DNA of 64,000 nucleotides, from positions 83,080,001 through 83,144,000 of the forward strand of contig JBNRSN020000024.1 of NCBI GenBank assembly GCA_051313645.2. Reading direction: 5' to 3'. Positions 1,382 to 53,112 of the stretch are shown here, piece by piece. This DNA is from Centroscyllium fabricii (taxonomy: Eukaryota). Under the pieces are notes generated by a model. The model saw only the letters and a list, made by a program, of their open reading frames with translations, was not told where the DNA came from and did no database searches. Position 1 is the first letter of the stretch; each line of letters begins with the position of its first letter. Position numbers and translations under genes: made by a program.

Positions 1382-1669
1382 TATGAAGTGTAGTTACTGG
1401 TTGTAATGTAGGAATTAGTTCCCAGTCTGTATGGAACTACTCTTCTGTCCTCCCTCAGAAGGAAGGATTGAAAAGTCTGGTCCCCTTTCATACCACAGGA
1501 GTGGTATTGGAGGAACCAAGCAGCCCTGGCTACACACTTGACCCAGGGCATAGTGCATGTTATTGAGGTTGGAACATTTCCGAGTATTCGAGTAAGATTT
1601 TAATTAAGAATTTTAACAAAGAATTTTTGGTTCACTTCCAGATTTTTGATTTTTTTTTTCTCTTCACAG

Positions 1670-1861
1670 ATTGTTCCGTGTCAGTATCTGTTACAACCTG
1701 TGAAGAATGATGATCGGCACCTGTACTCCCAGCACCTTAAATCACTGGCGTTTTCTGTCTTCACTCAATGTCGGAGATCCTTACCACCCTCCACCTATGT
1801 CAAAGCACTGACTGGCTTTGGTCCAGGACTGGCCTTAGACAGCACCTTAAAGAGTCCAGAT
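1670..1861 (+). CDS. MED13: Mediator subunit 13, internal coding exon (first in window)
   Basis: Polypyrimidine tract, cag|ATT ... GAT|gtaagt; [36 protein letters not shown]...[17 protein letters not shown] matches the remembered vertebrate MED13 C-terminal region. Confidence 0.95.
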
Positions 1862-2475
1862 GTAAGTCTGTGTCAATTTTGTTTTAAAAACCTCTTCATT
1901 TCACATTCTCCACATACCATAGGAGCCTGGTCCACTTCTGATTGGCTCCAGGGGAAATGCCAACGATGTGGCCACTATGATTGCGTGTCTGTTTGCTTTT
2001 CCCCAGCTCTAGCATTGAATTTGTTGCTCCTACCATTGTTTGCTTCAGTTCTTGCACCTGGCTGCAAGAAATGGGTGGTGTAGATTTTCCTTTGGGTCAG
2101 CGTGTCATGTTCCTGATAAAACTTCTGCTTGCTTGACATTTTCGGGGTCCGCTGCTTAAAAATTGGAATGCCAACAGGCAGGATCTCTTCATCCTCTGAT
2201 TTCTGATGGAGAATATGGCCGCCTCCACCCCTTTTGAAGTGTTTCAAGCTTTGTAAAGATTGTAATCGCCCCTCAGCAGAAATAGATGGGCCTGAATCAT
2301 ATATAAAAGGTCTGTCACCACAACACTGGAAATTGCACCACTTACCTTGGTGTTGGGGGGGGGGGGGGGTGTCTCTGAATGTATCTGTAAGTCCCTTCAG
2401 TATTTTGCTTAATCTGCATGCCGTGTGATAAAGCAGAAAGCAAAATCACAGGAAAACTGAGATTCAAAACAAGAT

Positions 2476-2845
2476 TGTGAGGGGGCTTGATCGGGTGGAT
2501 GCGGTGAGGATGTTTCCACTGATGGGTGAGACTAGAACTAGGGGGCATAATCTTAGAATAAGGGGCTGCCCTTTCAAAACTGAGATGAGGAGAAACTTCT
2601 TCACTCAGAGGGTAGTAAATCTATGGAATTTACTACCTCAGAGAGCTGTGGAAGCTGCGACATTAAATAAATTTAAAACAGAGATGGGCAGTTTCCTAGC
2701 TGATAAGGGAATAAGGGGTTACGGGGAGTGGACAGGGAAGTGGATGTGAATCTAAGTTCAGATCAGCCATGATCCTATTGAATGGCGGAGCAGGCCCGAG
2801 GGGCCTTATGGCCGACTCCTGCTCCTACTTCTTATGTTCTTATGT
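2476..2845 (+). mobile_element. CR1-type LINE 3' fragment
   Basis: TRGHNLRI...RRNFFTQRVVNLWNLLP plus the standard tail. Confidence 0.88.
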
Positions 2846-3589
2846 ACAAAGAAAAACCTGTCGGTTTTGATCTGGAGTCTTCTGGCACTGAATCTCAACT
2901 GGATTTGAGCACTGTGGCCATCTTGCTAATACCAGCTGAGTATAGATACCCAAAGGTACCAAGAGCACCGACAATGCCTATCTGCTGGTAACAACACCCA
3001 ACTAGACTGGGCATAGAGACCAAATCAGCAACGCATGCCATCAACTCAACTGGCAGCGCTCACCATCGGCCCGAATTTAAGTCCCTCTGGCACGTGTTGC
3101 AAGTTAACACTGGTTAATTTACCCAGGTAGGCAGTGATGGTTGCTGAAGAATTATTGACATGATGCCACACTGCGGCGGCTCTGGTGCCATCGTGTATCT
3201 GGGGAAGGCCGCCAATGAGGTTATCAGTCAGTACCTGCCAGTTCTGCTGGACGCCTCCTGCAGGGCCGGCCTAAGTACTACACAAGTTTAATATTCTAGT
3301 ATATCCCATAACCAGAGTAAATGTCCTAAACATGTAAGAAATACGCAACCTGTGCAATCCCCAATGGAACTGTCATCCCCATTAAAACCATACACTCTTG
3401 GGAAGTGGGACGACTCTTGATAAATCTGCTGAAACCGTATTGCAGATGAGACAAGGATAGAGCCGAGGACCTCCTTGTTACGTATCCGTGCCACACAAAG
3501 AGGTGCATTTGCTCCCTGAGCTATTTGTGGAGCTGAAATTTATAAAATGTGACCCAATTGTGAACCTGTCTTTTTCTTTTTTGCTACAG

Positions 3590-3813
3590 AGGCCAGAGTG
3601 TTTGCGGATTTACAGCCCACCGTTTATCTTGGCTCCAGTGAAGGATAAGCAGACTGAGCTGGGAGAGACATTTGGAGAGGCTAGCCAAAAGTACAATGTT
3701 CTTTTTGTTGGCTATTGCTTGTCACATGACCAGAGGTGGCTGCTTGGAACCTGCACGGATCTCTATGGAGAACTGCTGGAAACCTGCGTCATTAATATAG
3801 ATGTACCAAACAG
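3590..3813 (+). CDS. MED13: MED13 coding exon
   Basis: tacag|AGG ... AAC AG|gtatgt; [50 protein letters not shown]...NIDVPN. Confidence 0.96.
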
Positions 3814-4794
3814 GTATGTAGACGGCTGAAAAACATCAAAATATCGGCTAATTCACCCAGTCTAGTCGAAAGACTTGTCTTGAAATTGCTAGCAGCCCAG
3901 ACTGGCAGTTGTTTACAGAAAAGAACAGATCACCCTAGTCAGACCAGATGTATCTTCCAGTCTGTGTTGACATAGAAAGATTAGTGTATACAAGATGATG
4001 TTAGTACATTAAAAAAAAAACGCAGACATTGGAGAGCAGCACCAAACACATGCTGGTAACACGTGGAGAGTCAGGTGCAAAGTACTCCCAATTGCTAGTT
4101 AAAACTCCTGGCATATTCTCGGTGTGACCTTGAGTAATGTTGGCACCACCTTAGCTTCAGGTATCTTGCAGCAGACTTGCGTCAGTCTTGAAGGTAATGA
4201 GGTTTTGTTTGAGGGGTGATTGATTGTTTTGCTCTGCCAACACCTAGTTTTAGCTTTGTATTTGAAGGTCCAGCGTAAAAATGTATATGGTCAGCAAAAT
4301 GGGAAAATAATAAGAGAAAACAAGAATAATCTATTTTTAAGGCGTCCCAATCCACCTTTGTTACCATTGAACCCGGGGGTCAGTGGCCCTCTACTTTCAC
4401 CCCACATGGTGGTGCTGGCCTGAGTCAGTATTTTGGAGAATTCTTGGTGTGCAGCTACATATCTGACCATCTGTGACTCAGCAAATTGGTGCTTTGGTGT
4501 GCTACAGTGTTCTGCTTCTGTTCCTATCTTTACATTCGGTTTTTTTGTGTACCCCCCCCCCCCCCCACAAGTTAAATGCGGGGAAAAACCTCCCGCCCTG
4601 GAAGCAGCTGTTAATACACTTTCATGGGTCCCAATCAAAGTCCTGTGTACTTGCCCAAGTGACCAACGGTTATGAGCCTGGCAGTAAGTGTTGGACTGTT
4701 TGACCCTCGAGTGGCATCACATCCAAACCTGACTTCGACCTCACATGGGTTACTGGATGTTTTACTCTAACCCAGGCAAATAATAGCGGCCCCC

Positions 4795-4930
4795 AGTTCT
4801 GACGAAAGGTCATCGACCTGAAACGTTAACTCTGTTTCTCGCGTCACAGCTGCTGCCTGACCTGCTGAGTTTCTCCAGCATTTTCTGTTTTTATTTCAGA
4901 TTTCCAGCATCTGCAGTATTTTCTTTTTGA
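4795..4930 (+). mobile_element. Penelope-like terminal fragment, family P1, with hammerhead core (4795-4831)
   Basis: agtt CTGACGA a AGGTC atc GACCT GAAA cg TT aact; repeated at 33477, 51757 and 17575. Confidence 0.7.
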
Positions 4931-5083
4931 CATACTAGTGCCCCGAGACCAACTAACTCCATGCACGGAGCGAACCTGGGCCACCTTGTTCTGTACGGCT
5001 CAGCTGCTCACCTGCTGAGCTGAGGTGGTTGCATTTTTTGTTCAATGTCCAGTTTAGTTGCACAGTGGCCTATAATACAAATA

Positions 5084-5429
5084 CAGGTTGAGCACCGGTA
5101 ATCCGGCACCCGATGGTCCGGCAGCTTCAGTGGTCCGGCACGATTGGAAACCGGCGCTCTTCATTTTGCGGAGCAGCCGCTCGGTGGCGCCACCATTTCC
5201 CGCCAAGGTTGAGCGAGCGCCGAAGGCGTCTGGCGTTTGGGTTTCTGGTTTTTTAGGTTCTGTAAGTGTTCTATCCCTGGGCTCCCTCCCGGGGAGTGTT
5301 CTAACCGCGCGCTCCGGGCCCCGGGGAGTGTTCTACCGCGCGCTCCCCCGAACCTTCAGTGGTTCGGAATTTTCAGTGGTCCGGCACAGGCCTGGTTCCG
5401 AGGGTGCTGGATTAACGGTGATCGACCTG
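5084..5429. mobile_element. Tigger/pogo-like MITE, TIR type A
   Basis: TA|CAGGTTGAGCACCGGTAATCCGGCACC ... GGTGCTGGATTAACGGTGATCGACCTG|TA. Confidence 0.85.
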
Positions 5430-5431
5430 TA

Positions 5432-6020
5432 CAGGTTGAAGTTCGTTAATCTGGCAGGGTCAGGACCAGCACCCTGCCGGATTGTTGAAAACGGCGAATT
5501 ATTGAAACCACGGCGGCGCATGCGCATTCAAAATGGCTGTCGCGAAATTTTCAATGCTCTGTGCATGCGCTCACCGGTACCTGGAAGTTGATTTTCGGCC
5601 CAAGGGTCGGGTGGAACTCGCACTCGATTCTGCTGCGGGTCAGGGAGCGGGCCGCATGGCTCCAGCGGGCCTGAGGCCCAATGCGGGGCTCAAGCCCGGC
5701 TCACGTGACGCCACCGCACGCCAGCTTCGGAACGTGGTAACGTCCGCACGCAACCAGGCAGGAGCCTCCGGCAGCGATGGGCACCGAGAATTGCCTGTAT
5801 CGCGTCCTGCGAAAGGCGGCTGGCACAACAGCTCATCTTCTGGGCCTGGGATTCACCATCGACATCGGGGTGGTCACTAAGCCGGGATCCAGTGAGTATA
5901 TGTTGGGTGAAAGAGAAGCCCAGCCCCGACGGTGGCCATTTTGAATTGTTTGCACAGTTGGGAAAATCTGCGCCGAAGCTGCCGGTTTTTACGGGTGCCG
6001 GATTAACGAACTTCAACCTG
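5432..6020. mobile_element. Tigger/pogo-like MITE, TIR type B
   Basis: TA|CAGGTTGAAGTTCGTTAATCTGGCA ... TGCCGGATTAACGAACTTCAACCTG|TA. Confidence 0.87.
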
Positions 6021-6099
6021 TACTTGCATTCTAAAGGCAAGGGGGATGAGTGAATCCATTTTGCACAGTTAAATTGGTGATTTATGTTTTATCTGACAG

Positions 6100-6242
6100 G
6101 GCTCGCAGGCGGAAAGGTTCACCCCGGAGAATGGGTTTGCAAAAACTCTGGGACTGGTGCTTGGGCATCATGCAGATGACATCACTGCCCTGGAGGGTTG
6201 TTATTGGGCGCCTCGGGAGGATAGGACACGGAGAGTTGAAAG
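6100..6242 (+). CDS. MED13: MED13 coding exon
   Basis: gacag|G GCT ... AAA G|gtaaaa; [47 protein letters not shown]. Confidence 0.96.
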
Positions 6243-6554
6243 GTAAAAGAAATTAAGAGGAGTAAAGCAGATGAACATCCCACGGCATCCTGCAAACTGG
6301 CACATTGCATATTTATTTAACAATTTTCCTGGTATGTTGCTGGCAAAACATTCTCATTCTTGGAAGTATTAGTTCCAGATGTGAGCACTGACTAATGGGG
6401 ACTGCTCTTAGTATAAGTACACATATGAAACAGCCGTATATGTAAAAGAACAATTTTACCAGATCTGTACTATTGCTCACTAAATCCGAGGATCGGCTGT
6501 TTTATAAGAGGAATGCTGTATCAGGTAACGCACAATATATCTTTCTACTACTAA

Positions 6555-6820
6555 AATCAGATCGGCCATGTGATCTCCTGGACCAGTTTTTGATCGCCTA
6601 GATGGGTCGGAGAGGAATTTCCCAGATTTTTTCTCCCAAATTGGCCACTGGGTTTTTTATCTGGCTTTTCGCCTCTCCCGGGTGATCACATGGGTTCGGG
6701 CGGGATGGAGAGTGAAAATAAAATTGAGGTTAGGATCAGATCAGCCATGATCTTGTTGAATGGCGGAGCAGGCTCGAGGGGCTGATTGGCCAACTCCTGC
6801 TCCTATTTCTTATGTTCTTA
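6555..6820 (+). mobile_element. CR1-type 3' tail fragments
   Basis: Two successive tail-like segments (agatcggccatgtgatctc...; gatcagccatgatcttgttgaatggcggagcagg...ttcttatgttctta). Confidence 0.6.
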
Positions 6821-7006
6821 CGTAAAAGAACCCTGGATCAAGCAGAGTTGAGTTGTTTGGTGAGAGAACAGTGCATATTGGAAGCTGTTTGTAAAGATCA
6901 GGCTGCAGATCAGCACTCTCTCTTGAGATTGTTTTACATCTGTAACAATGCAAAATACAAAATGCCATGTGGTAGATGAAATCTTATTCTATCTTATTTA
7001 TCATGA

Positions 7007-7204
7007 TGTGGAGGTGCCGGTGTGAACTGGGGTGGACAAATGCAAGAAGTCACACAACACCAGGTTATAATCCAACAGCTTTATTAGAAATCACAAGCTT
7101 TCGGAGCGTTGCTCTTTCACCTGACGAAGGAGCGGCGCTCCGAAAGCTTGTGATTTCTAATAAAGCTGTTGGACTATAACCTGGTGTTGTGTGACTGCTT
7201 ACAT
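7007..7204. mobile_element. Inverted Penelope-like terminal pair, family P2, with hammerhead core (7117-7153)
   Basis: Hairpin with ~80-bp arms at 7038-7206; flanked by the 13-bp duplication ttatttatcatga (6994-7006 and 7205-7217). Confidence 0.75.
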
Positions 7205-7974
7205 TTATTTATCATGACCGTGCTCTAGACTATCTATGAGTAAAATTCTGAGAGTCCTGCGAACTTACACACATTTATTTTGTGTTCTTTTTAATACTGC
7301 TTTATTATAAAGTATGTGTTAGTGTTTTTAAAAAAAAAACTTGTCTGTATGTCGAAGAGCACTTATTTGTCCCCTTCCCTTCTCTCGTGGATGCCATGTC
7401 CCGGTGGATCCCAGCAGTACCTCATTAAATGGCCTTTGTTGATGTGTGAGCCAAGATTAAAATGGCAGGTTATTTGACCGTAGAGAGCTGAGTCCAATCT
7501 TGTTTTCACTCGACTTCTAAAGATGTACTTTTTAGCGAGGCTCATTTGATAAGTGATCAGGAGCGGGAACCAAGTTTTTTTTTTTTGCTGTCTCCAATGC
7601 ACTGAGGCCAATTATAGCACCATAACCTGCCTGAGATCAGCTGATGAGGGACATGCTTGTAATTGAACTGGTTCTATATCTTTTAAGCCTAGAAATTTAC
7701 TTTGGGGAATATTGAACCAATGCTTAGACCTTTGATATGAGATTCCTTTACTGGTTCAGTGGCGACTTTAAACTACAGTTTACCTGTATTAATATAGCAG
7801 GCAATGGAATGGCATACGCCAGTATCCTCAAAAGTAGCTTCTAGGCTATTGTGCGATACTGGGCAGTACATACAGTTACAAAGCCATCAAGAGAGCATTA
7901 GTAGAAAAGTTCTTTAATCTCCAGTGCATATTTATGTTCCCAAGATTCATGCTGCTCTTTTTGATTTCCTGCAG

Positions 7975-8133
7975 ACTGGAGTTGCTTACTTGGTCGGCGC
8001 ACTTTGCAATCCCTCAGCCGGCACCTGAAGGACACATGCAGGATGTGTGGCATTTCTGCGGCGGATTCTCCGAGCATCCTTAGTGCTTGTTTGGTTGCTA
8101 TGGAGCCCCAGGGATCATTCGTGATAATGCCTG
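7975..8133 (+). CDS. MED13: MED13 coding exon
   Basis: tgcag|AC TGG ... CCT G|gtaaga; [53 protein letters not shown] (not in the ORF track, read manually). Confidence 0.95.
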
Positions 8134-8219
8134 GTAAGAATAGTTTGGGGAATGTCCAGTTGAAAACTTGAATAAATTTATAGTCAGCAATTAGTTTCAA
8201 CCTGCATGAGATTAAAACA

Positions 8220-8876
8220 TTTTTTTTTATCCATTGATGGGATGTGGGCGTCGCTGGCTGGCTAGGCCTGCATTTAGTGCCCATCCCTAATTGCCCTTGA
8301 GAAGATGGTGGTGAGCCGCCTTCTTGAACTGCTGCAGTCCATATGGTGTAGGTACACCCACAATGTTGTTAGGAAGGGAGTTCCAGGATTTTGGCCCAGC
8401 GACAGTGAAGGAGCGGCGATACAGGTCCAAGTCAGGATGGTGTGTGGCTTGGAGGGGAACTTGTAGGTGGTGCTGTTCCCATGCGTCTGCTGCCCTTGTC
8501 CTTCTAAGTGGTAGAGGTTGCGGGTTTGGAAGGTGTTGTTGAAGGAGCTTTGGCGAGTTGCTGCAGTGCATCTTGTAGTTGGTACACACTGCAGCCACAG
8601 TGCGCCGGTGGTGGAGGGAGTTAATGTTGAAGGTGGTGGATGGAGTGCCAATCAAGCGGGCTGCTTTATCCTGAATGGTGTCGAGCTTCTTGAGTGTTGT
8701 TGGAGCTGCACTCATCCAGGCAAGTGGAGAGCATTCCATCACACTCCTGACTTGTGCCTTGTAGATGGTGGAAAGGCTTTGGGGAGTCAGGAGGTGAGAC
8801 ACTCGCCGCAGAATTCCCAGCCTCTGGCCTGCTCTTGTAGCCACAGTATTTATATGGCTGGTCCAGTTCAGTTTCT
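8220..8876 (-). mobile_element. 3' fragment of the tRNA-headed LINE family (see 59729-63230)
   Basis: ORF 8287-8844 is nearly identical to ORF 62517-62984 (YKAQVRSVME.SPLAWMSA); same tail and poly(A). Confidence 0.88.
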
Positions 8877-9084
8877 ACGTGTATATATGTACTGATGTAG
8901 TTTTACACTAGTATGATTTAAAAAAAATGATTAACCTGCTAAAGAATGTGAATGGAACCTGTATTCTGGTCTGACATCTCAACTCTCCATTTGAACAGCA
9001 GCTCCTGGTGGCCTGGCAAATGTTTTCCTTTCATAGTTTACATGTGACGTGTGTGTGAGTTTAGTATTGCCTGATTTATACAAC

Positions 9085-10615
9085 CAGGTCTGCCTGATGG
9101 ATGGATGTTTTTCAGACTGGGCAGTGGTGTTCCCCAAGGTCAGTTTTGGGTGCATTACTCTTTATTTTTATTAATGACCTAGACTCGGGTGTAGTGAGCA
9201 GCATTCTGAAGTTTGCAGATGATATGAAACTTGGCAAAGTAGTAGATAGTAAGTAAGTGAATAAGTAAGTAAATGTTATTGTCACATGAACTGAACAAGA
9301 AAGAATTCAGACAGTGAAATGCTGACTGCTATTCCACACGCGCCATACATCAAACTGCGCAACAAAGGACATTGAGATACACAGCACGCGCGGAATCCGC
9401 AAGACCTCAAGCCATTCTCCGGCGCCATCTTGTGATGAGGATAGTTGTCGACTTCAGGATGGTGAATTGGGTAGAAACATAGAAACATAGAAGATAGGAG
9501 CAGGAGTCGGCCATTCGGCCCTTCGAGCCTGCTCCGCCATTCAATGAGATCATGGCTGATCATCCAAACCCAGTATCCCGCCCCTGCCCTCTCCCCATAT
9601 CCCTCGATCCCTCTCGATCCGGCACCGACACATATCCCACCCTATCCCCGTAACCCCACGTATTCAATCCACCTAACACTAAGGGTCAATTTATCATGGC
9701 CAATCAACCTAACCCGCAAATCTTTGGACTGCGGGAGGAAACCGGAGCACCCGGAGGAAACCCACGCAGACACGGGGAGAATGTGCAAACTCCACACAGA
9801 TAGTACCCGAAGCACGGCAGATGGCGTTCAATGCAGAGAAGTGTAAAGTGATGCACTTGGGAGGACTAACATGGAAAGACAGTGTACTATAAATGGCACG
9901 ATTTTGAAAAGTGTAGATGAGACCTTGGTGTCCTTTTACACAAATCCTTAAAGCTGGCATGGCAAGTTGATAAATTGGTTAAAAAAGCAGATGGGTTACT
10001 TGGGTTTATAAATAGAGGCATAGAATATAAAAGCAAAGAAATAATGTTTGAACTTTATAAATCGCTGGTTAGGTCTCAGCAGCACTATTGTGGACAATTC
10101 TGGGCACCGCACTTCAGGAAAGATGTAAAGGCCTTAGAAAGGGTTCAGAGGAGGTTTACCAGGATGTTACCAGTGATGAGGGACTTCAGTTATGAGGAGA
10201 GGCTGGAGAAGTTAGGACTGTTCTCCCTGAACCAGAGAAGGTTAAGAGGTGACCTAATCGAGGTTTTCAAGATGATGAGAGGTTTTGATAGAGTAGAAAG
10301 AGAAAAACAATTCCCTCTGGCGAGTGGATCAATAACCAGAGGTCATAGATTCAAAATCATTGGCAGAAGATCTGGAGGGGAGATGAGGAGAATTTTTTTC
10401 ACTCCGTTGTCGGGATCGGGAACGCTCCTCCTGAAAAGGTGGTGGAAGCGGATTCCATCAATAATTTTAATGGGAATTGGACAGTTACTTGAGGATGTGA
10501 AACTTAAAGGGTTACGAACAAAAAGCGGGAATGTGGGATTAAGCATGACTGTTCTTTTACAGAGCCAGTACAGGCATGATGGGCCGAATGGCCTCCTGTA
10601 CTGTTAGTTTCTATA
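9085..10615 (+). mobile_element. CR1-type LINE RT/3' fragment with two nested insertions (~9251-9432 unclassified; 9472-9810 V-SINE)
   Basis: Degenerate GVPQGS and KFADD motifs at ~9125-9225; ORF 9975-10607 is a CR1 C-terminus. Confidence 0.82.
9472..9810 (-). mobile_element. HE1-like V-SINE, 5'-truncated, long CR1 tail
   Basis: V-domain (gtggagtttgcacattctccccgtgtctgcgtgggtttcctccggg) and CR1 tail. Confidence 0.85.
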
Positions 10616-10619
10616 ATCT

Positions 10620-11260
10620 TCGGCAGCACCACCATTGCCAAGACCACCACCATCAATATTCTGGAGATCACCATTGACTAGAAGCTTAACTAGACCAACA
10701 CTGGCTACAGGAGTAGGGCAAAGGCTGGGTATTATGCAATGAGTAGCTCACCTCCTGACCCCCTCAGCCTCTCCACTATATCTACAAGATTCAAATCAGG
10801 AGTATGATGGAATATTCAGCACTAACTGGATAGATGCAGCTGCAACAATACTCAACAAGATTGACGCCATTCGAGACAGAGCAGTCCACTTCATTGGTGC
10901 GCCTGCTGCGAGACTCAGGATTCATTCCATCCACCACTGGCGCATTGTTGCCACAGTGTGTGCTGTCTACAACTGCAACAACTCACTAAGCTTACTTGAA
11001 TAGAACCTCCCAGCCCTGTTACCTCTGCTGCAGAGAAGCACAAGAGCAACCAAATCTTGAATGCCATCACCTCTAAGTTCCCTTCCAACTCCTATGCCAC
11101 CATGACTTGGAGATATACACATTGTCGTCACGGAATCAAAATTCTGCAATTCACTACGTGATACCATTGTGGGAGCGGTCAGGAGGGCCCACCATTACCA
11201 TCTCGGGGCAGCTGAGAATGGGTGAAAATTATGGCCTCGCCTATATCTTGAGAAGAAATA
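10620..11260 (+). mobile_element. Degenerate 3' fragment of the tRNA-headed LINE family
   Basis: Colinear, diverged similarity to 62520-63230. Confidence 0.7.
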
Positions 11261-11293
11261 GTTTAAAAAAATCTTTTAGGGAGCAGTGGAGTG

Positions 11294-11422
11294 TAATGTT
11301 TCCTGTAATGGTGCGGGCCATTCAGAGTTCCACGCACGCATGGGTTTTCTATTTAGGAGCCGGCTCACTGGCTCTGCGGGACCTCGAGCGCTGTGTGACT
11401 GCGCGGCTTAAAGGGAACATTG
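11294..11422. mobile_element. Short hAT-like MITE (CAATGTTCCC TIR family)
   Basis: aatgtttcct ... agggaacattg; homologous to the copies at 46183, 49789, 54158 and ~18775. Confidence 0.6.
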
Positions 11423-12870
11423 CTTGAGTATCATCAAAAAGAATCAGAGGACATATGCCACTAGGCCAAATATTAACATTGAAATGGGGAGAAGAGGGGC
11501 TTTATGGTGCAACATGTTGGTGCCCCTCCATGGGGTATCATGTACGGCTAGGCTTTGGTTGCAGCTGTGATTCACGAAGTGTTGAATTTTCCCCTCACTG
11601 TGTTATGGGGACAGGCTCACTGAAAAACTAAAGCGCTTCATCACATTCGATGCAGTCAGCCTGGGCAGACTGCCTCATATGGCTGCTATAATCGAGAGTT
11701 GCCTCCAGCAGCACACGTTTTATTAGGAGGGAATCCTGTTATGTTAAGGACCCGATGCATTTGCCATTGAGGATAATGAAACCCTCCCAAGTAGGGTTAT
11801 TGCCTGGTGACTGCCGACTTCGAAGCTTAACGGCGCCTTTTGGTCGTATTTTCTGTTAGATTCATCAATTTGGATCCGCCTAAGAGCAAGTTAACTCCTC
11901 AGCCCTCCTGTACAGACCTTGCCTCAACATTAGAAGATCCCAACAGGTTGACAAAAGTTGGGAGTGTGACTGCATTAACTGTGCACACAGATGATCTGCA
12001 GTTACACAGTTGGTTAAAAGTGTTTGTCATTTACAAGCGCATATATTCAATTTTCCATTTATTGTCATTGGATGTGGCTCTAATCTAAAATCCAGTGTCT
12101 GTTGGCGAGCGGCACTGAAGCAACTTTGGACAACAGAAGGTGAATGTTGTCGGGACTCCCCATTCAGAGACAAGGGGCGAGAAAATGAAAGAGCTCGGAG
12201 AAAGAGTCTAAATTATTATATGTACTAAAAATAAATATATTTGAGAAAGACTTGAATTATAGAGCACCCTATTATGTTGTCAAAACATCTCAAAACTGCT
12301 TCACAAAATGAGTTTTTGAAGTACAGTGTCTGTTAATGGAAGCAGCCATTCCATAATGACAGTGTCTGGGAAGTAACAGAGACTTAAGCGATGACTTGTT
12401 TTTAGTGGTTGAGGGAGGAATGTTGCCCAGGACACTGGGAGAATTTCCTGCTCTCTCTCAAATCGTGCCACGGAATCTTCAACATTGACAAATTATGGCC
12501 TTTATTGTGCGGCGGAAGGGGTGCATAATTTGGAAGTTGTTAAACCTTTCTAGCCTTGGTAATTAAAACCAGGGGTTCAAAAAGTATTTTAAGTCTTCAT
12601 GAGTGAATGTGTTGCAGATCTCTCTAAGTTATCAGCAAATCACATTTTTCAACTTTTTTTTCAAGTCGAGCGCTGGTGTGAACCATATGAGCCAATTAGT
12701 TGCATCAAAGAGCTGAAGGTTCTTTTGAACTGGAGGTTCATATCCTGAAGCCATTAGAAAGAAACTTTCTTTTTATACCTTACTCGTTTGGTCTATTGTT
12801 GAGGACTTAACAGAAAATCTTTATTTTGAAATGTTGCTAAAGGACTAAACTTTTTTTTGTTTTGCTGCAG

Positions 12871-13029
12871 ACTCTGTGTCAGTCGGATCTGTGTTTGGTC
12901 GTGGCACGTCTCTCAACATGCAGACATCACAGCTGAGCACACCGCAGGATACATCGTGCACTCACATCCTGGTGTTCCCTACCTCCGCCATGGTGCAGGT
13001 GCCAACTGGGAACTACGAATTAAACGTTG
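12871..13029 (+). CDS. MED13: MED13 coding exon
   Basis: tgcag|AC TCT ... GTT G|gttagt; [53 protein letters not shown]. Confidence 0.92.
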
Positions 13030-14555
13030 GTTAGTCTTGTGTGTTTCCCTGGATTCTTACAGACTAGATTGCCAGGGTTTGAATTGGGGTATAATCTCTC
13101 ATTCTGCACTGTGATCCAGTCGAGTGGATGGTGGCTCAGTTGGTGCATCGGTTTCTGATTCCGCAGCGAATAGCTGAATATGGGTTTGGCTAGATGTTTT
13201 ATTTTTAAATGCTCAGTTTGGCCCTGGAGCAGATACGGGCTGAATGGCCTTTTTTTATTCCTTTATTCTTGGCTGCTGCAATGGCTCCATGCGCTGATCT
13301 AATAAGTAGCTGAGCTGTACAGAACCAGGAAGGCCCCAGGTTCAGAGCCTGATCCTTGTTAGCTTATTGCAGCTGTAGTAACAGTAGGGGTGCTACATTT
13401 GGCTTCAATACCTCATAGTTTGTGGTGGACAGAAAACCAGAACCACGGTTGGATTCAATGCCCCCAAGTTATGGGGGAAGATCAGCTCGGATTCCTGTTC
13501 CAGTGCACATGTGAGTACTTGGACAAATGATTTCCTGATGCAGTCAATTGAAGTGAAGAATAATGGTTACACAGGAGTGGGCACGTGGCTGTAATGTCAA
13601 CAAAGGGTTCGGATAGGCTCTGAACCACGAGTGCAAAACTTTAGTCGTTTATTAAAGCACCTGAACGCCGAATGGTTTGATGGCCCCCAGAGCTGATGTG
13701 GGCTGACGACCACACTACGTTGTGATATAATGCCCTGCTCATTGAGTAACAAACCGCAATAGATTAGCGAATATCCGCACACTTGGCTTGTTTCTACTGT
13801 GAGTGACATAATGAGTAAAAGCACTATCTGCTGTCCTGACCTGCACAGACTAGATCGAAGGTTCGATCCTGAGCTGGGGCTGAGTTTGGGGTGTTACAGT
13901 TTGGCTTGTGAGCTCAGGATTGGAAAATTCAACCAAAATTCCCACTTCTGCTGGATATCTGGTGGGCAGGATACCCTACATGGTTTATTAACCTGTTGAT
14001 AATTGGTAACTTAGATGTGAAGAATGGTTACTTGTGGTGAGGTACTGGAGGGATGCTTGGGATGGGGTAGGGGACTCGCACACCAGCATGAATTGTGGAG
14101 GGGGGGAGGAGGCAGCAGAGGAGAAACAATTCCTCCTGTCAGTCTACGCATTATGCAATGTAGTGCTTTGGAACTGGTTCTTAGAAATGCTAGAATGCTG
14201 CACATACTGATGATTGAGGAATACGTGGGGGATTGATGGGGTTTGATGTAAGAGCATCTTGTGTTGCTCTGAACTATTCAGCCACGTCCTGCTGCAGTGG
14301 AGCATGTTTTCCTACAGCCTGCTGGTAATCATTAATTGAGGACTGAACTTTCCACTGGTCCATCTGTCTTTAGACCTTTTTTTAATTGGGCCGTGGTGAA
14401 TGGAGCAGTGACATTTCAAATTCACAGCAACTGAACAACTCTTAGTATATAGTTGATTGCTGCGATGGATCACGCAGTGAGAATGCTGATCATTTACAAG
14501 TCGTTTTCGAATATTGTGCTCCCCGATCCTTATCTGACTCCCTTTTGATTTGCAG

Positions 14556-14683
14556 AGGAAATAGGGATCTTTGACTTACTGGACCCAGACGATGATCTTA
14601 TAATTAACTTGCCAGCATCTCCATCCACATCGCCGGGACATTCACCAGGCTCTCATTACCCGCACGGCGGTGACACTGGCAAG
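14556..14683 (+). CDS. MED13: MED13 coding exon
   Basis: tgcag|AG GAA ... AAG|gtgagg; [42 protein letters not shown]. Confidence 0.92.
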
Positions 14684-15014
14684 GTGAGGCTGTTGCGTCG
14701 TCACATTTGTTTCCCCCCCTTTTTACATTTTCAGCCAATACTTCAGTAAATCAATTCACCAGATACAGATGAGAAGAATGTTTGGTGCACCTTTAGATTA
14801 TCCATCAAGCCTTCTTTCTCTCCGCTCCTTCCTCCTTAATAAAATCAAGTGTTTCTTAAATAATTCCTCGGTTTCTCTCTACCCTACCTGGAAGTGTATT
14901 CCACTTGTTGATCAACCTTTGTGTGAAGGATAGCTTCCTGGCGTCAATCCTAAATTTGCTGTGTATTGGTTTGGCCCTCTGCCTCTTTGTCCCACTGTCA
15001 TGGTTTAGCTTATA

Positions 15015-15453
15015 CAGGTTGAGCACCGTTAATCCGGCACCGTCGGGACCAGGCTGGTGCCGGACCACTGAAAAATCCGAACCACTGAAGGTTCGGGGAG
15101 CACATGCGCAGACCATTCAAAATGGCCTCCATGCATGCGCAGACCATTCAAAATGGCCACCACGCATGTGCAGACCATTGAAAATGGCCGCTGCGCATGT
15201 GCAGACCATTCAAAATGGCCACCGCGCATGTGCAAACCATTCAAAATGGCCACCGCGCATGCGCAGACCATTCCAAATGGCCACCGCACAGGCGCAGACC
15301 ATTCAAAATGGCCGCTGCGCATGCACAGACCAGTCGGGGAGAGGCCTGCGCATCGTGAGCGTCCCTGGGATCACGTGGGCCATCCAGACGGATTCGTGCC
15401 GGACCACTGAAGGTGCCGGACCATCGGGTGCTGGATTAACGGTGCACAACCTA
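15015..15453. mobile_element. Tigger-like MITE (type A) with internal 31-bp tandem array
   Basis: TA-flanked TIRs CAGGTTGAGCACCGTTAATCCGGCACC; 7 full units of cgcgcatgcgcagaccattcaaaatggccac at 15101-15332. Confidence 0.87.
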
Positions 15454-16262
15454 TATCGATATTCTGGACGTACCTTTTTCTACACCATATATAACATCTC
15501 ATCCTTTGTTGCTTTCTTTCAAGGCTGAAATGCACAATTTCCTCTAGGTTTCCTTGTGATTGTCTCCATTTCCCTTTCTGTCCCCTCCCCTTGCTCCCAT
15601 TTTGTCTTTGTTTTCTCTGCACCTATAATGTGTCCTGACATTTAGTAAGTGGTACAGCATGACATTGTAACAGCTGCCAAACTCCAATATGCTTAAATTG
15701 CCTTGGGCAGAGTTTCTGCTAACTGGAGACCTCTGGGCTCTTGATATGTTAACAAGGAGGTGCTGGAAATCTGCCAAGAATTGAACTTTTTTCCCTACAG
15801 AATGCCACAAGCATTCTACCGGTAAGTTTATATACTGTTAAATATAGGCTCTTTTAAGATGTTTGGCTTTTGGAGCCATGTTAAATGTCTTTTTCTCATT
15901 TCCTACCTCCTTTTGTGTCATGACTCCTGAAAAAGTTTGAAACTCTTGCAACAAATTTCTCCAGTGCTTTTAATACTACTCGTGACTTTCCACATTCTGG
16001 GATATGTTTTTTTTTGAAAGACAAAACTTAGCTGGAGAGTAACATTGTGACTGGAGCTACGTTTGTTCCCAGGTTAAAAATGTTGCAGTTGCCTATCGAG
16101 TATCTTTTGTTTCCATTCTCTTTAACGTTACACCACAATTCATAATATTTTTAGGTGTGAAGCATAAAATAACTTGGAGAGAGGGTAAGTGGAGGAGGTT
16201 TCATGGAGAACTTCTGCTTAAGGAAGTAGCTAGTTGAGTTGTGTGATAAACCGTTTACCCCC

Positions 16263-16570
16263 AATACTGTTGTATATAGTTACCTCCTGTCCACCTGGGA
16301 TCTACCTGGGATAATACTGTATTGTATATAGTTACCTCTTGTCCACCTGGGATCGACTTGGGATAATACTGTATTGTATATAGTTACCTCCTGTCCACCA
16401 GGGATCTACCTGGGATAATACTGTATTGTATATAGTTACCTCTTGTCCACCTGGGATCGACTTGGGATAATACTGTATTGTATATAGTTACCTCCTGTCC
16501 ACCAGGGATCTACCTGGGATAATACTGTATTGTATATAGTTACCTCTTGTCCACCTGGGATCGACTTGGG
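16263..16570 (+). repeat. 52-bp minisatellite, 6 units alternating as a 104-bp dimer
   Basis: Unit starts at 16311, 16363, 16415, 16467 and 16519; diagnostic bases alternate. Confidence 0.92.
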
Positions 16571-16748
16571 ATGCCTCAGCCGGCTCCGCCTCCTGGCTCC
16601 ACCCACAGACTGAGGTATAAAGGTGGCAGCCCTGCTGACCTCGTGGCATTCCAGGACCTGATAGTGACGAGACCTGTACTCCAGTTCTTTGTTAATAAAA
16701 GCCTCAATTGCTTTACTTCGTCGACTCACAGTAATTGATCGTGCATCA
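16268..16748 (+). mobile_element. Probable solo LTR (Gypsy-like)
   Basis: Starts TGTTGTA and ends TGCATCA; internal TATAAA (~16616) precedes AATAAA (~16694); flanks aatac/agtag match only partly. Confidence 0.6.
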
Positions 16749-16819
16749 AGTAGCTGAAATGTAAAATTCTAAGTTTGTGCCCCAGTTATGATGGATTTAT
16801 CTGGTCCCATCTTAAGCAT

Positions 16820-17135
16820 CCACTCCCTGCCCCATCGTGGCTGCAGTGTGCACTATCTACAGCATCTTCGACAACACCTCCCAAACCCATGACCGCCATC
16901 ACCTGGAAGTACAAGGGCAGCAGGCGCATGGGAACGCCCTCCCCTCCAAATCACACACCATCTCAACTTGGACATGTATCGCCGCTCTTTCAAAATCCTG
17001 CAACTCCCTTCCTAACAGCACTGTGGGAGCACCTTCACCACACGGACTGCAGCGGTTCAAGAAGAAGGCTCACCACCACTTTCTCGTGGTCAACTAGGGA
17101 TGGGCAATAAATGCTGGCCTTGCCAGCGACGCATA
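16820..17135 (+). mobile_element. 3' fragment of the tRNA-headed LINE family
   Basis: Tail caactagggatgggcaataaatgctggccttgccagcgacgc. Confidence 0.8.
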
Positions 17136-17344
17136 GAACATTCTAAACACATGCTGCCGCCTGCTCGGCGCTGAAGGCTAGATCGAAAAGAAACACTTTA
17201 TGCCAGCTTATTCTCTTGTTTTTACGGAATATGGAACTTTGAAAACCTAACACCGTTTGTTAACAGGATAGATTGAGACAATTACCATAAATAACCTGCT
17301 GCAGTCTGCCAATTATAATTAACTTGCTGCTTTTACTGTTTCAG

Positions 17345-17506
17345 GGACAGTGCACGGACCGACAGGAATCTCACGATGAAGTAACCATTTTGCAGCAGCC
17401 CCTGGCACTGGGATATTTTGTCTCGACCGCTAAGGCTGGGCCACTTCCTGACTGGTTTTGGTCGGCCTGCCCTCAAGCACAGAACCAATGTCCGCTTTTC
17501 CTCAAG
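17345..17506 (+). CDS. MED13: MED13 coding exon
   Basis: ttcag|GGA ... AAG|gtaagc; [54 protein letters not shown]. Confidence 0.96.
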
Positions 17507-17574
17507 GTAAGCCGAGACAGCTTTGTGTGTGTGTGCATGTGTGTGTTTTTTCAGAAAACTTGGGGAGTTAAATA

Positions 17575-17742
17575 CAGTAGCAAAATACTGCGGGTGCTGG
17601 AAATCCAAAATAACAACAGAAAACGCTGGAGAAACTCAGGCCAGGGCAGCATTGGCGGAGAGAGAAACAGAGTTAACGTTTCAGGTCTTTGACCTGATGC
17701 TGCCTGGCCTGCTGAGTTTCTCCAGTGTTTTCTGTTGTTATA
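17575..17742. mobile_element. Inverted Penelope-like terminal pair (family P1), partly deleted
   Basis: Minus-strand copy of the 4795 repeat followed by a plus-strand partial copy, forming a hairpin. Confidence 0.7.
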
Positions 17743-18183
17743 TTGGGGAGAATTAATGTGCCCTCATGGTAAGAGTTGAAGGTGGAGGGATTCACCTCGA
17801 GGTGGAATTTTTAAAAATTCACCAACTATTCCGATTAAATTCAGAGTAAGTAACTGAAAGACAAATGAGAACTTTTGTTAAAATCTTTTTTAAAAATGGA
17901 TTCACCCATGTGTGGGGTTACGGGGATAGGGTGGGATATGTGTCGGTGCAGGCGCGATGGGCCGAAATGGCCTCTATCCGCACTGTAGGGATTCTATGAT
18001 TACTGTGGTGACTCCAGATATGATTTGCTGGCTGTAGTTTTGTGTGTAATGGGATTGTGTTACACTGGTAACAATGACTGTTGCCATCTAGTGGCAAGTA
18101 TAGTAATGCAGTAACACGCTGAGCTGGACCAGGTGTATTGTCTTTTACATTTCATGGGGTTTTAATATCTTCTTGGTTTTCAG

Positions 18184-31223: not shown

Positions 31224-31497
31224 CTGTACAGGAAGAGAACAGTACAACAGTGAATAATGCTTCAAAGTTTATTTAGAACAGAGATCCTGAGATTTTACTC
31301 TGCAAATGCCACTGAAACCATCTCTAGCTTAAAACCTCTATCACAAACATTATTTTTATTGATACGACCAGTTAGTGTTCCTCTGAACCCTCCTAAACTT
31401 CAAACACCATCTGTATGTCTCTGCTGAGGTGTGATGTTGGAAGAGATTAGACTGCTCTCTCCCTTGTATATTATATGCTGTCTTTAAATGAACTTCT

Positions 31498-31625
31498 CTT
31501 TCACCTGAGGAAGGAGCAGCGCTCCGAAAGCTTGTGATTTCAAATAAAACTGTTGGACTATAACCTGGTGTTGTGTGACTTCTTGCATTTGTCCACTCCA
31601 GTCCAACACCGGCACCTCCACATCA
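31498..31625 (+). mobile_element. Penelope-like terminal fragment, family P2, with hammerhead core (31501-31537)
   Basis: tcac CTGAGGA a GGAGC agc GCTCC GAAA gc TT gtga. Confidence 0.75.
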
Positions 31626-32010
31626 TAGAACATAGAAGATAGGAGCAGGAGTGGACCATTCGGCCCTTCGAGCCTGCTCTGCCATTCAACGAGATCATGG
31701 CTGATCATCCAAACCCAGCACCCTGTCCCTGCCTTCTCCCCATATCCCTCGATCCCTATCGAGCCTGCACTGACATATTCAAATCCCCCTTATCCCCGTA
31801 ACCCGACATATTCAATCCCCCTAACACGGAGGGTCAATTTATCATGGCCAATCAACCTAACCTGCACATCTTTGGACTGTGGGAGGAAACCGGAGCACCC
31901 GGAGGAAACCCACGCAGACACGGGGAGAATGTGCAAACTCCACACAGATAGTACCTGAGGCTGGATTTGAACCCGGGTCTCTAGTGCTGTAAGGCGACAG
32001 TGCCGCCCGT
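31624..32010 (-). mobile_element. HE1-like V-SINE, long CR1 tail
   Basis: tRNA-like head, V-domain and CR1 tail. Confidence 0.85.
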
Positions 32011-33279: not shown

Positions 33280-33612
33280 CACTTCATCTGGCGCCATCCT
33301 TTGTTTCTTAACCTGTCCCATTACCGCCTCCTCTTGCCTTGAATATCTCTTAATGTCTCTTTACTTCTCCTGCCTTCTATCCTATCACAGACCTTCCCTT
33401 TTGTTCTTTCAAGCCCTCCCCCCTTTCTCAGCCCCTAAAGTTGCTTTGAAATCTGCTCCATTTCCTGCTTTTTTCCAGTTCTGACGAAAGGTCATTGACC
33501 TGAAACGTTAACTCTGTTTCTCTCTCCACCGATGCTGCCTGGCCTGCTGAGTTTCTCCAGTGTTTCCTGTTGTTATTTCAGATTTCCAGCATCCGCAGTA
33601 TTTGGCTATTGT
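33280..33612 (+). mobile_element. Penelope-like terminal fragment, family P1 (longest copy), hammerhead core 33477-33513
   Basis: Pyrimidine-rich leader, then agtt CTGACGA a AGGTC att GACCT GAAA cg TT aact. Confidence 0.72.
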
Positions 33613-35454: not shown

Positions 35455-35793
35455 CTGTGTAAAGATCACCCACAATTAATATTCTAAATTTACCAAGACA
35501 TGGAGCTAATGACCTCACAAAATTTTTCTGCACTCTGGTAATAAGTGGAAAAGGAGAAATAAACTGAGGTAGAGGGCCAGCCAACCTCTGCAGTGGCTCA
35601 CAGCCACTTCTAGGAGAGGAGCCGGCTGCAGTTTGCTGTCTGAGGAGAGAAAAAATCTTTAAGACTCAATAATATATTTAAAATTACAAATGTTACTGAA
35701 TACATTTATGTTTAACTTCCCAGGTTTCCCTAACCCTCCGCCCCCGAAGGCGCTGCCAGTTACCGGTTTATAAATCCACAGTGCCCTGTCTTA

Positions 35794-36384
35794 AGGCCCT
35801 GTCACACCTTGACGAATTAGCTAGCGCATGCCGACGTATGCAAATTTATCTAAAACGCTGGCGTTCGCTGAACTATCGATGTTTTTTTCAGTTTTTGGGC
35901 ATATAATAACGTATTCATAACGAGTTGGACGTATGCATAACGTATTAGTAACGTACACAGAACGTATCGATAACTTACAGATAACTTATACCAACGAATG
36001 CTTAGCGTGTTGTCGGCGTTCACAACTTATGCCCAACGATAGTCTAACTTATGCATAGCGCGCGGCAGCGTTTCGCCGACGATCACGTGGCTAGACATTA
36101 TCTCGACGTATTTTGACTTATGACTAACTTACAAGTAACGTGTGTCGACGATCGCCTAACGTGCCTACAACTTATGGCCAGCGTATGCGGACGTGTGAGT
36201 CATACGCTGGATAAGTCGAGAAATTTTGTGCATGCTCAAAATTTCTCGACTTACTCGGAGTACAACGACGTATGCCAGCGTGCTCTTAACGTATACAAAA
36301 CTTACCCATAACGTATTCGACGTGTACCAGCATTTTCGCCAAATTTGCATACGCTGGCTAAAACGTCAAGGTGTGACAGCCCCA
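35794..36384. mobile_element. PIF/Harbinger-like MITE, very CpG-rich
   Basis: TIR core CTGTCACACCTTGACG / CGTCAAGGTGTGACAG with further subterminal matches; TTA on both flanks. Confidence 0.75.
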
Positions 36385-36599
36385 TTAGCTCACTTAAGTG
36401 GCTATTCACAAGCAGCGAGTGAGTGAGTCCAAGCTTCTTGACCACACAGTGGTGTCAGAACGCACCCGGATTTTACCCTCATCCGAGGTCTGTACACGTG
36501 CGCCTTACAACACACGCCATTGGAGAAGGAACCCTTGGGGAGACGGAGGCCCGTCACAGCATCCCAACTGCCATGTCTGCTGCAAGAATGCTACCACTG

Positions 36600-37310
36600 A
36601 GCCAAGTGTCAGATTGGCTCACTGGTGGCACTCCCACCTCAGAGTTCGAAGGCGGTGGGATCATGCACCACTGCAGGATTTGGAACACAAGCTAGACTGA
36701 CACTGCGGTGCAGTTCCGAGGGAGTGCCGCACTGTCAGAGGTGCCGCCTTTCGGATGAGATTTTAAATGGAGGGCCCGTCTCCTTGTTCGGATGGATGTG
36801 AAAGATCCCATGACACTGTGCTGCGATTAGGAGGGGAGTTTTCCCGATGTCCTGGGCAATATTTGTCCAAATAGCCACCACCAAAACAGATTAACTGGTT
36901 GCTGATCTCACTGATGCTTGTGGGACTTTGTGTGTGAACTGACTACCGTGTTGGCCCATAAAACAGCAACTACACTTCAAAAACAATTCATTAGCTGTGA
37001 AGTGCTTTGGGATGTCCTGAGGATGTGAAAGGTGCGATCTGTGGTTTATCGCTCAGCTTTACACTAGTTGGTGAATTTTCCAACCAAGAAAACAAAGACT
37101 TGCATTATTGATACAGCGCCTTTCACGACCACCGGATGTCTCAAAGCGCTTTACAGCCAATGAAGTGCTTTTTGGAGTGTAGTCACTGTTGTGATGTAGG
37201 AAACGCGGATGCCAATTTGCGCACAGCAAGCTCCCACAAACAGCAGTGTGATAATGACCAGATAATCTATCTTTTTTGTTATGCTGATTGAGGGATAAAT
37301 ATTGGCCATC
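36600..37310. mobile_element. Two Deu-domain SINEs, tail-to-tail (+ ~36600-37040; - ~37095-37310)
   Basis: Similarity to 29950-30400. Confidence 0.7.
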
Positions 37311-42974: not shown

Positions 42975-43546
42975 CAGGTTGAAGTTCGTTAATCCGGCAC
43001 GGGCGGTACCAGGCCTGTACCGGACAAGTGAAAATCCCGAACGATTGAAGCTTCGGCGAGCGCATGCGCAGACCATTCAAAATGGCCGCCGCGAAAGGCC
43101 GGCGGCCATTTTGAGTGGTCTGCGCATGCGCTGATCGTTCGGGGAGGCTCGCAACGGCCAGGCTCGGGGAAGCTCGCAGCGGGGAGGCTCGCAGCGGCCA
43201 GGCTCGGGAAAGCTCGCAGCGGGCAGGCTCGCAGCGGCCAGGCTCGGGGAGGCTCGCAGCGGCCAGGCTCGGGAAAGCTCGCAGCGGCCAGGCTCGGGAA
43301 GGCTCGCAGCGGCCAGGCTCGGGAAAGCTCGCAGCGGCCAGGCTCGGGAAAGCTCGCAGCGGCCAGGCTCGGCCATTGTGAATGATCTGCGCATGTGCTC
43401 GCCGTTCGGCGGCGCATGCGCAGATCATTCGCCGAAGCATCGATCGCGGTGGCCATTTTGCGCATGCGCAGGGCAGTCGGGGAACTTATTGCCAGATGTT
43501 CGAAGTTGCCGGTTTTTCGGGTGATGGATTGACGAACTTCAACCTG
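42975..43546. mobile_element. Tigger-like MITE (type B) with internal ~25-bp tandem array
   Basis: TA-flanked TIRs CAGGTTGAAGTTCGTTAATCC; ggctcgcagcggccaggctcgggga repeated over 43140-43372. Confidence 0.87.
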
Positions 43547-44237: not shown

Positions 44238-44796
44238 CAGTGGTCCCCAACCTTTGTGCGTTCACGGCCCATTTTGGGCTTGTCAATTTCTTCGAGGACC
44301 GCTGAGTTTTAGTCTCACAGGGGGGGGCTGACGGAGAGTTTTTGTCTCAGCGGGGGGGGGGGGGGGTTTGACCTATATTTTTGGTCCAAGCCGGTGGCGG
44401 GGGGCTGACGGAGATTTTTAGTCCGAGCGGAGGGGGGGGGGGGGGGGGGGGAGGGACCTGACGGAGATTTTTAGTCTCAGCGGGGGGGTGGGGTGCTGAT
44501 GGAGATTTTTAGTCCCAGCAAGGGGGGGGGGGGGGGGGGGGGTTGTGACGGAGAATTTTAGGCTCCGCGGGCAGGGTGGGGTGCTGGCGGGGTAATTAGA
44601 CTGACCGCCGGAGGTGCTGCCTTACGTCTGTGCCTTGACCTCCATCGGCGGTAGTTACTGAGAATCCGCGCATGCGCCGATTCACAGACCATGCGGCGGC
44701 CAGTCGATCATTTGCCAGCGGGCCGCGGCAGGGTCGTTGACTGGCGCATGCGCGGATTATCATAACCTTCCGCGGACCGGCGGTTGGGGAACGCTG
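44238..44796. mobile_element. hAT-Charlie-like MITE with G-run tandem array
   Basis: Perfect 8-bp TSD ccttaacc (44230-44237 and 44797-44804); TIR CAGTGGTCCCCAACC / GGTTGGGGAACGCTG. Confidence 0.9.
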
Positions 44797-46662: not shown

Positions 46663-47051
46663 ACATAGAAACATAGAAGATAGGAGCAGGAGTAGGCCAT
46701 TCGGCCCTTCGAGCCTGCTCCGCCATTCAATGAGATCATGGCTGATCATCCAAACCCAGTACTCCGTCCCTGCCTTGTCCCCATATCCCTCGATCCCTAT
46801 CGAGCCTGCACCGACACATATCCCACCCTATCCCCGTTATTCAATCCCCCTAACACTATGGGTCAATTTATTATGGCCAATCAACCTAACCCGCACATCT
46901 TTGGACTGTGGGAGGAAACCGGAGCACCCGGAGGAAACCCACGCAGACACGGGGAGAATGTGCAAACTCCACACAGATAGTACCCGAGGCTGGATTTGAA
47001 CCCGGGTCTCTAGTGCTGTGAGGCAACAGTGCTAACCACTATGCCACCGTC
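46663..47051 (-). mobile_element. HE1-like V-SINE, full length, long CR1 tail
   Basis: Head, V-domain and (tttctatg) tail. Confidence 0.88.
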
Positions 47052-47451
47052 CGTCTATTATCAGGTAGGCCAGAAGCAACACAAGCTGAACCCGCATTTC
47101 CCTGACCGAATTCTCCAGGCTGCACTGTCTGCTGCGCATAAGTAATATTTCCATCCCTTTCACAGAAGCCTCTCAGGGTCAAGATTGCTGACAATTTGTG
47201 CTCATTTTTGGACACCAAGGGAATTTTTTGGACACTTAAAGGAATCGAGGGATATGAGAATCAGGTGGGAAGGTGGAGTTGAGGCAGAAGATCAGCCATG
47301 ATCGTATTGAATGGTGGAGCAGGCTCGAGGGGCCGTATGGCCGACTCCTGCTCCTATTTCTTCTGACCGATTTCTGACCAGCTGGATACAATATACATGC
47401 ATGATGCCAAAATACTCTCTTCCCGTGAAATGTTCAGACATTTTTCTACTA

Positions 47452-52718: not shown

Positions 52719-53112
52719 ATAGAAACATAGAGAAACATAGAAACTAGGAGCAGGAGTAGGCCATTCGGCCCTTCGAGCCTGCTCCGCCATTCAATGAGAT
52801 CATGGCTGATCATCCAAACCCAGTACCCTGCCCTCGCCCCATATCCCTCGATCGCTATATCGACACATATCCCACCCTATCCCCGTAACCCCACATATTC
52901 AATCCCCCTAACACTAAGGGTCAATTTATCATGGCCAATCAACCTAACCCGCACATCTTTGGACTGTGGGAGGAAACCGGAGCACCCGGAGGAAACCCAC
53001 GCAGACACGGGGAGAATGTGCAAACTCCACACAGATAGTACCCGAGGCTGGATTTGAACCCGGGTCTCCAGTGCTGAGAGACAACCGTGCTAACCACTGT
53101 GCCACCGTGCCG
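52719..53112 (-). mobile_element. HE1-like V-SINE, long CR1 tail
   Basis: Head, V-domain and tail. Confidence 0.88.

Follow-up and report, generated by a model that had tools for sequence, protein, structure and literature searches.

Within the 64-kb stretch of DNA analysed here (the window), an intron of MED13 contains a short fold-back with a hammerhead ribozyme motif near its joint, which raises the question of what determined where the two arms end and whether the ribozyme played any part in it. At 6994-7217, two ends of a high-copy Penelope-like retroelement are inserted head-to-head, with a TSD on either side. The copy itself is ordinary and probably inert, and the interest of the locus is carried by a breakpoint rule rather than by the window copy. 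The features are given below in window positions; signed coordinates are relative to the predicted hammerhead cut, 0 being the first base past the cut (window 7150).

1604-17689, plus strand: MED13, with medPIWI and Med13_C matches, convergent with INTS2
6243..7974, plus strand: MED13 intron (GT..AG) holding the insertion, with Med13_C matches on both sides
6994..7006, unstranded: left TSD copy, whose last 5 bases also match the element end
7007..7114, drawable to 7118, minus strand: tailed arm, the element end read leftwards, with its 5' end at -20 to -24 and lacking CUGANGA
7007..7037, minus strand: one-sided Penelope tail that stops at the element ORF's ATG (7004-7002, minus strand)
7112..7125, unstranded: head-to-head joint, with 4-7 nt common to both arms, one mismatch at 7115, then a 7-nt loop at 7119-7125
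7116..7204, plus strand: untailed arm, starting at -34 (drawable at -35/-38) and ending about 55 nt past the predicted cut
7117..7153, plus strand: P2 minimal type-I hammerhead, with helix I at 7117-7120 and 7150-7153 and the predicted cut between 7149 and 7150
7205..7217, unstranded: right TSD copy, an exact 13-bp direct repeat
31410..31626, plus strand: second copy of the same element, tailed and without an inverted arm, its 5' truncation lying about 124 nt upstream of the cut and its hammerhead at 31501-31537
30994-63920, minus strand: INTS2, convergent with MED13, with the element copy at 31.5 kb inside it, antisense
4795..4831, plus strand: P1 minimal hammerhead, of a different repeat family, with a second copy at 33477-33513

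In a sequencing run guessed to be RNA, one contig joins 6096-6240 to 7973-8133, the MED13 exons. The inverted arms described in the earlier note are present (7038-7118 and 7126-7206, 81 nt, 93% identity, 7-nt loop), the 13-bp direct repeat around them (6994-7006 and 7205-7217) is exact, and the insertion has the published Penelope layout of inverted truncated ends; both the Penelope origin and the TSD are supported. That note missed a tail of about 31-36 nt, found on the left arm only. The left arm matches the copy at 31.5 kb over 7003-7118 (minus strand) and the right arm over 7112-7206. The arms lie head-to-head and the hammerhead motif is complete only once; its placement at the hairpin centre holds for 7119-7125, in the loop, but not for helix II, GAAA, and the predicted cut (7149|7150), which are buried in the stem.

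The P2 motif combines the CUGANGA, GAAA, and UH core of a minimal type-I hammerhead with helices I and II, the extra base, and a palindromic 15.2-16.2. A minimal-hammerhead descriptor found four sites in the 64-kb window, two P1 and two P2, and none in 200 shuffles. As had been noted, the helix sequences of P1 and P2 are unrelated, all helices differing, and the copy at 31501-31537 departs from 7117-7153 at two positions, N7 and the base that opens loop II. Rfam returned no hammerhead family among its 5 matches in the window, the miRNA matches being generic hairpins below the gathering score. Among 107 arms from tail-chosen loci the core is at least 90% invariant and is intact in 77/107, N7 varies freely (C 47%, G 29%, T 22%), as does loop II, helix II is kept through swaps (58 A-U, 47 G-U), and the outer pair of helix I is retained in just 79. 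No two-sided (compensatory) changes were found in 11 hand-picked copies of the family. The whole insert is predicted to fold at -144.7 kcal/mol, with a pair probability for helices I and II of 0.0 versus about 0.2 in the right arm alone; judged from these modelled folds, the ribozyme of the window copy would be sequestered in the fold-back and unable to fold.

What had been taken for a second hammerhead family is instead a repeat present tens of thousands of times: exact matches to a 26-base stretch of the tail number 76,635 across the 7.2-Gb genome (control, 0). The sequence upstream of long copies is the end of an ORF, which led to tandem units of about 3.1 kb, the period of the pLTR-type tandems L111 and L112. 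An 890-aa ORF is present in L112, and 919-aa open frames in both arrays. In Pfam, the parent ORF matches RVT_1 (E 7e-10) and GIY-YIG (E 2e-4; 22.2 bits, just under the cut-off of 22.6), and Atlas places it with GIY-YIG clusters at 0.97; the endonuclease was not matched by Pfam in 3/3 fragments and then in 1/2, all four being longer fragments. The element is thus an EN+ Penelope-like element, with a single ORF for RT plus GIY-YIG at its C terminus, tandems, an inverted 5'-truncated copy, a one-sided tail, and a TSD. The ORF also carries DKG and, between RT and EN, a CX4CxxC linker at residue 752; a CX2-5CxxC linker is described as common to Neptune and Nematis (PMC8557442), and the linker here is of Neptune type. 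Its parts run in the order ORF, 3' UTR, hammerhead, untailed end (about +55), tail, and ATG, the last at +91, 91 nt past the predicted cut. An adjacent inverted arm occurs in 59/96 tail-chosen loci, with outer ends at +48 to +66 for untailed arms (44/48) and near +90 for tailed ones. TSD length has its mode at 12-13 bp (43/100 loci) and is 10-15 bp in 51/100, 47 being shorter or unresolved and 2 not measurable. A non-LTR retrozyme, defined by head-to-tail tandem units each with a hammerhead (bioRxiv 10.64898/2026.07.22.740005), was excluded by the head-to-head arms and the single complete motif.

The full-length units of the L111 and L112 arrays are 99.5% identical with an open 890-aa ORF, and the family is therefore young. 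Separately, the RNA between ribozyme and ATG (31551-31610) folds in prediction into a long stem-loop that takes in the untailed end, resembling the AC-rich stem-loop of the anole element, and the overall fold of this RNA is no better than that of shuffles.

For the 5' ends, the breakpoint sample comprised the first 100 tail matches on one contig (C1), picked regardless of where those ends lie; all breakpoint samples come from the start of one contig, and loci ranked by likeness were kept out of the counts. Both arms were mapped by split alignment against natural copies, with long arms placed by BLAST ends. Four of the 100 tailed arms (L075, L087, L150, L175) and three mis-split untailed arms (L168, L170, L175) were left out, and L165 was set by hand. 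The 30 loci of P1, considered as an independent replicate, were too diverged and nested for their ends to be mapped. This mapping, suggested in the earlier note, showed ends that are far from random: 35/96 tailed arms end at -11..-45 versus 7.5 expected (P 3e-13; 0/2000 scan simulations as extreme), and 26/59 untailed arms end at -26..-45. The window arms end at -20 (to -24) and -34, that is, 20-35 nt upstream of the predicted cut. The suggested coincidence of inversion point and ribozyme therefore stands as a non-random link to the ribozyme region, but the ends do not lie at the cut. A length or processivity rule was rejected, since tailed and untailed arms share a stopping position on the template although their starts lie about 35 nt apart.

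The position of these ends was compared between subfamilies: A, to which the window copy belongs (3,811 exact matches; 84 loci), and the two that served as a test, with 7,460 matches for D and 18,237 for C. The idea of an initiator arose from the family A data, with C and D as the test; C and D loci partly overlap the first sample, and 7/197 arms were dropped by eye as misaligned before counting. In family A, a TATA box lies at -66 and the A of an initiator-like motif at -36, a spacing of exactly 30 nt; this TATA-initiator spacing and the initiator consensus are textbook values. The initiator-like A lies at -44..-49 in D and -41..-43 in C, and inspection by eye found no TATA box at -30 from it in either family. 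Ends of family A pile up at -33..-36. Expressed per arm-base, ends at 0..+3 versus -5..-40 of the initiator A number 22/217 versus 4/1157 in A, 11/150 versus 9/896 in D, and 5/112 versus 5/711 in C, while the ratio of ends at -33..-36 to those at -41..-49 is 22:1 in A and 7:19 in C and D (P 9e-7). The end pile-up was thereby shown to track the initiator-like motif, which does not lie equally far from the ribozyme in all subfamilies.

A second indication comes from the base preceding the ends, which is G in 10/13 ends at the initiator A versus 37/115 elsewhere (P 0.004), although several of these G's could derive from the partner arm. A cap leaves G at a run-off end, as in full-length L1 copies, where run-off at the capped end adds G to the 5' end. 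From sequence features of this kind, the initiator A would be the transcription start and the preceding G would be cap-derived. A pLTR promoter is established for the Penelope of D. virilis (PMC2377424), and for the pLTR of rotifer Pen2a a TATA box plus a TCACT initiator-like motif has also been proposed (PMC3846280).

The window copy is best read, with good though not full confidence, as a dead 5'-truncated head-to-head insertion of two cDNAs. Both target nicks would have primed a cDNA, using the element's two RNA start sites; copying of an RNA left uncut, with its start probably a few bases ahead of the hammerhead, would have continued until it ran off the 5' end, and the two cDNA ends would then have been joined by microhomology via the ribozyme's short inverted repeats. 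Such repeats are present in the 5' part of the ribozyme, and CUGACGA lies in the hairpin loop because the joint is built on them. Joints on these repeats, of one of two types, were found in 14/85 family-A loci, window included, and the window's type recurs in 6/84 other family-A loci. For the anole Penelope, in vitro work described RT starts at two sites bounding the tail, nicking of both strands, and a preference for uncleaved RNA (PMC11167929).

Applied to the whole family, the same scheme leads to a broader reading towards which we lean slightly, namely that the short Penelope stubs, in their tens of thousands, record as fossils where transcription of the element starts. Each would be a product like a 'strong-stop', with capped, uncut RNA copied from two sites, cDNA ends annealed via the hammerhead inverted repeats, and a ribozyme that lies 3-16 nt behind the cap and is rarely cut. 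Both RT subunits would copy the first 90-140 nt of this RNA. If the ribozyme is rarely cut in the inserted RNA, its job would lie elsewhere in the cycle.

The strongest competitor, in itself unlikely, supposes that the RNA has no fixed end, that RT stalls or releases near the folded ribozyme or a U-rich tract, and that inverted-repeat microhomology fixes the joints. Stalling with microhomology does explain part of the peak, which is broad (-11 to -65), and the 14 family-A loci with one of the two microhomology joints, the window among them, fit it. Stops would however be expected 3' of the stems, and ends are least frequent there, with none among about 85 tailed arms at -5..-10; the pyrimidine tract of family A continues to -44 whereas its ends stop at -36. 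Ends at the A also occur where no microhomology is shared, and even in the solo copy L244, and the stop shifts between subfamilies while the ribozyme stays put.

Two cDNAs, as opposed to one, are indicated by the arms themselves. In L1 twin priming, two primed cDNAs are joined by microhomology to give an inversion within one TSD, but the arms there come from different parts of the RNA, whereas here both copy the same 90-130 nt. Self-copying of a single folded-back cDNA, or post-insertion trimming at the centre of a long palindrome, is distinctly improbable, even if paired arms usually have the same subfamily alleles, their 5' ends correlate (Spearman 0.71), and the palindromic junctions of rotifer Penelopes have been put down to self-priming as a proposal (PMC3846280). 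In 30/47 pairs, and also in the window, it is the untailed arm that extends further 5'; in the window the tail is on one arm and the 5' part on the other. Neither arm can be a copy of the other, and two priming events are therefore needed in the window and in such pairs. Untailed outer ends moreover cluster at +48 to +66 (44/48), trimming would not halt at the initiator A, and the arms of L159 and L169 come from different subfamilies. Arms within a locus differ by 3.1% and arms between loci by 5.9% (31/48 pairs usable), so the arms mostly share a source, L159 and L169 being exceptions. We infer two separate primings on one RNA or one source, followed by microhomology joining. A self-propagating MITE-like fold-back, or single master, was rejected because joints range from +64 to below -1900 and outer ends vary; two joint types recur, yet with different alleles and ends.

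Away from the hot spot, paired arms often end near the same template position (L067 18/18, L127 -105/-112, L128 -80/-80, L132 -139/-146), which suggests coupled copying or broken RNA.

The earlier note hinted that the ribozyme region defines the element end; taken in the sense of self-cleavage at the predicted cut, this ranks a shade lower again, and as a principal rule it has for the most part been refuted. In its favour, the subfamilies all retain the motif, with the invariant core, free N7 and loop II, and intact core in 77/107 arms given above, and a few short arms do end at 0/-1: 6/17 by script, or 4/13 (P 0.04, two ambiguous) after hand cleaning removed 2 misaligned and 2 duplicate rows. 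From this weak minor peak a small cleaved RNA fraction is possible. Ends within 4 nt of the predicted cut, however, number only 2/96 for tailed and 0/59 for untailed arms, the pile-up follows the initiator-like motif instead, and both window arms include sequence upstream of the cut. In a wider count, 389/422 arms extend across the cut, some of them having been selected with patterns that span it, and in the anole element cleavage was reported as dispensable in vitro, with no RNA reads ending at the cut (PMC11167929). Judged from these in vivo products, the pattern argues that the inserted RNA is mostly uncut.

Least credible of all is a common start at a splice acceptor ahead of helix I, for although the Drosophila virilis intron ends at helix I (PMC4209133) and families C and D have CAG at the site, family A has no AG there, C and D ends retain the A or G rather than beginning after them, and what lies beyond the ends is partner arms or flanks with no shared upstream exon.

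The element, the layout, and the ribozyme type are already known. Craig et al. 2021 (PMC8557442) and Arkhipova et al. 2013 (PMC3846280) describe EN+ Penelope-like elements whose complex insertions have the same head-to-head arms, TSD, and hammerhead in the pLTR, and likewise with a one-sided 30-40-bp tail and an adjacent inverted 5'-truncated copy. The present insertions differ from those described in having arms of about 100 nt without an ORF, a TSD of 12-13 bp as against 8-10, and a peak of truncation at an initiator-like A, where the published descriptions treat truncation as variable. The minimal hammerheads of metazoan Penelope-like elements (Cervera and De la Pena 2014, PMC4209133) are of the same type I, with a 4-bp helix I, no loop III, the same extra base between 9 and 10.1, G10.1-C11.1, and a palindromic 15.2-16.2; as here, they are reported in many sequence families per genome, mostly solo or close on opposite strands. 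Helix II has 5 bp here and 7-8 bp in the Schistosoma motifs of that paper, and the role in precursor-RNA cleavage proposed there has left almost no trace in the insertion ends.

The closest functional parallel is PAc, the Poseidon element of Anolis carolinensis (Frangieh et al. 2024, PMC11167929), in which two RT start sites bound the tail, as proposed here, with the outer start 85-92 nt past the cut (111-118 minus 26) versus about 90 nt. Nicking of both strands and an uncleaved RNA template, reported for PAc, are shared with the present proposal. The ATG of PAc is inside the ribozyme, whereas here it is at the tail end, and the ORF here has a Neptune/Nematis-type linker, unlike that of PAc. 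The main text of that study does not map the 5' ends of genomic copies. A rule that ends follow the initiator motif was not found in the open-access main texts searched; Fig. S2 of Frangieh et al. may bear on it.

The family-wide pattern bears on the function of hammerheads in Penelope elements and on how pLTRs come to be inverted and tailed on one side only. For three subfamilies it predicts the start site to the base, and it gives a model of the joint. If the strong-stop-like reading is true, any genome rich in Penelope elements would reveal their start sites and the fraction of RNA that is cut.

Other repeats in the window include further inverted pairs. A later MED13 intron holds a P1-family fold-back (17572-17746) with an internal deletion near its joint, and the earlier P1 copy seems to begin at an initiator-like motif (4793-4799) that overlaps its helix I and lies at about -33 to -35 relative to the cut predicted for it, and may follow the same rule. 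By eye, a GC-rich repeat abuts P1 a few bases from the predicted cut in 7/30 loci (L191, L197, L202, L208, L209, L213, L215), possibly a hot spot of nested insertion. At 36957-37190 another common repeat forms a diverged inverted pair, its arms 80 nt apart, which Rfam matches as a generic hairpin, and MITE-like inverted repeats occur at 43054-43442, 44645-44776, 35790-36388, 46680-47357, and 52855-53880, the longest arms being 259 nt.
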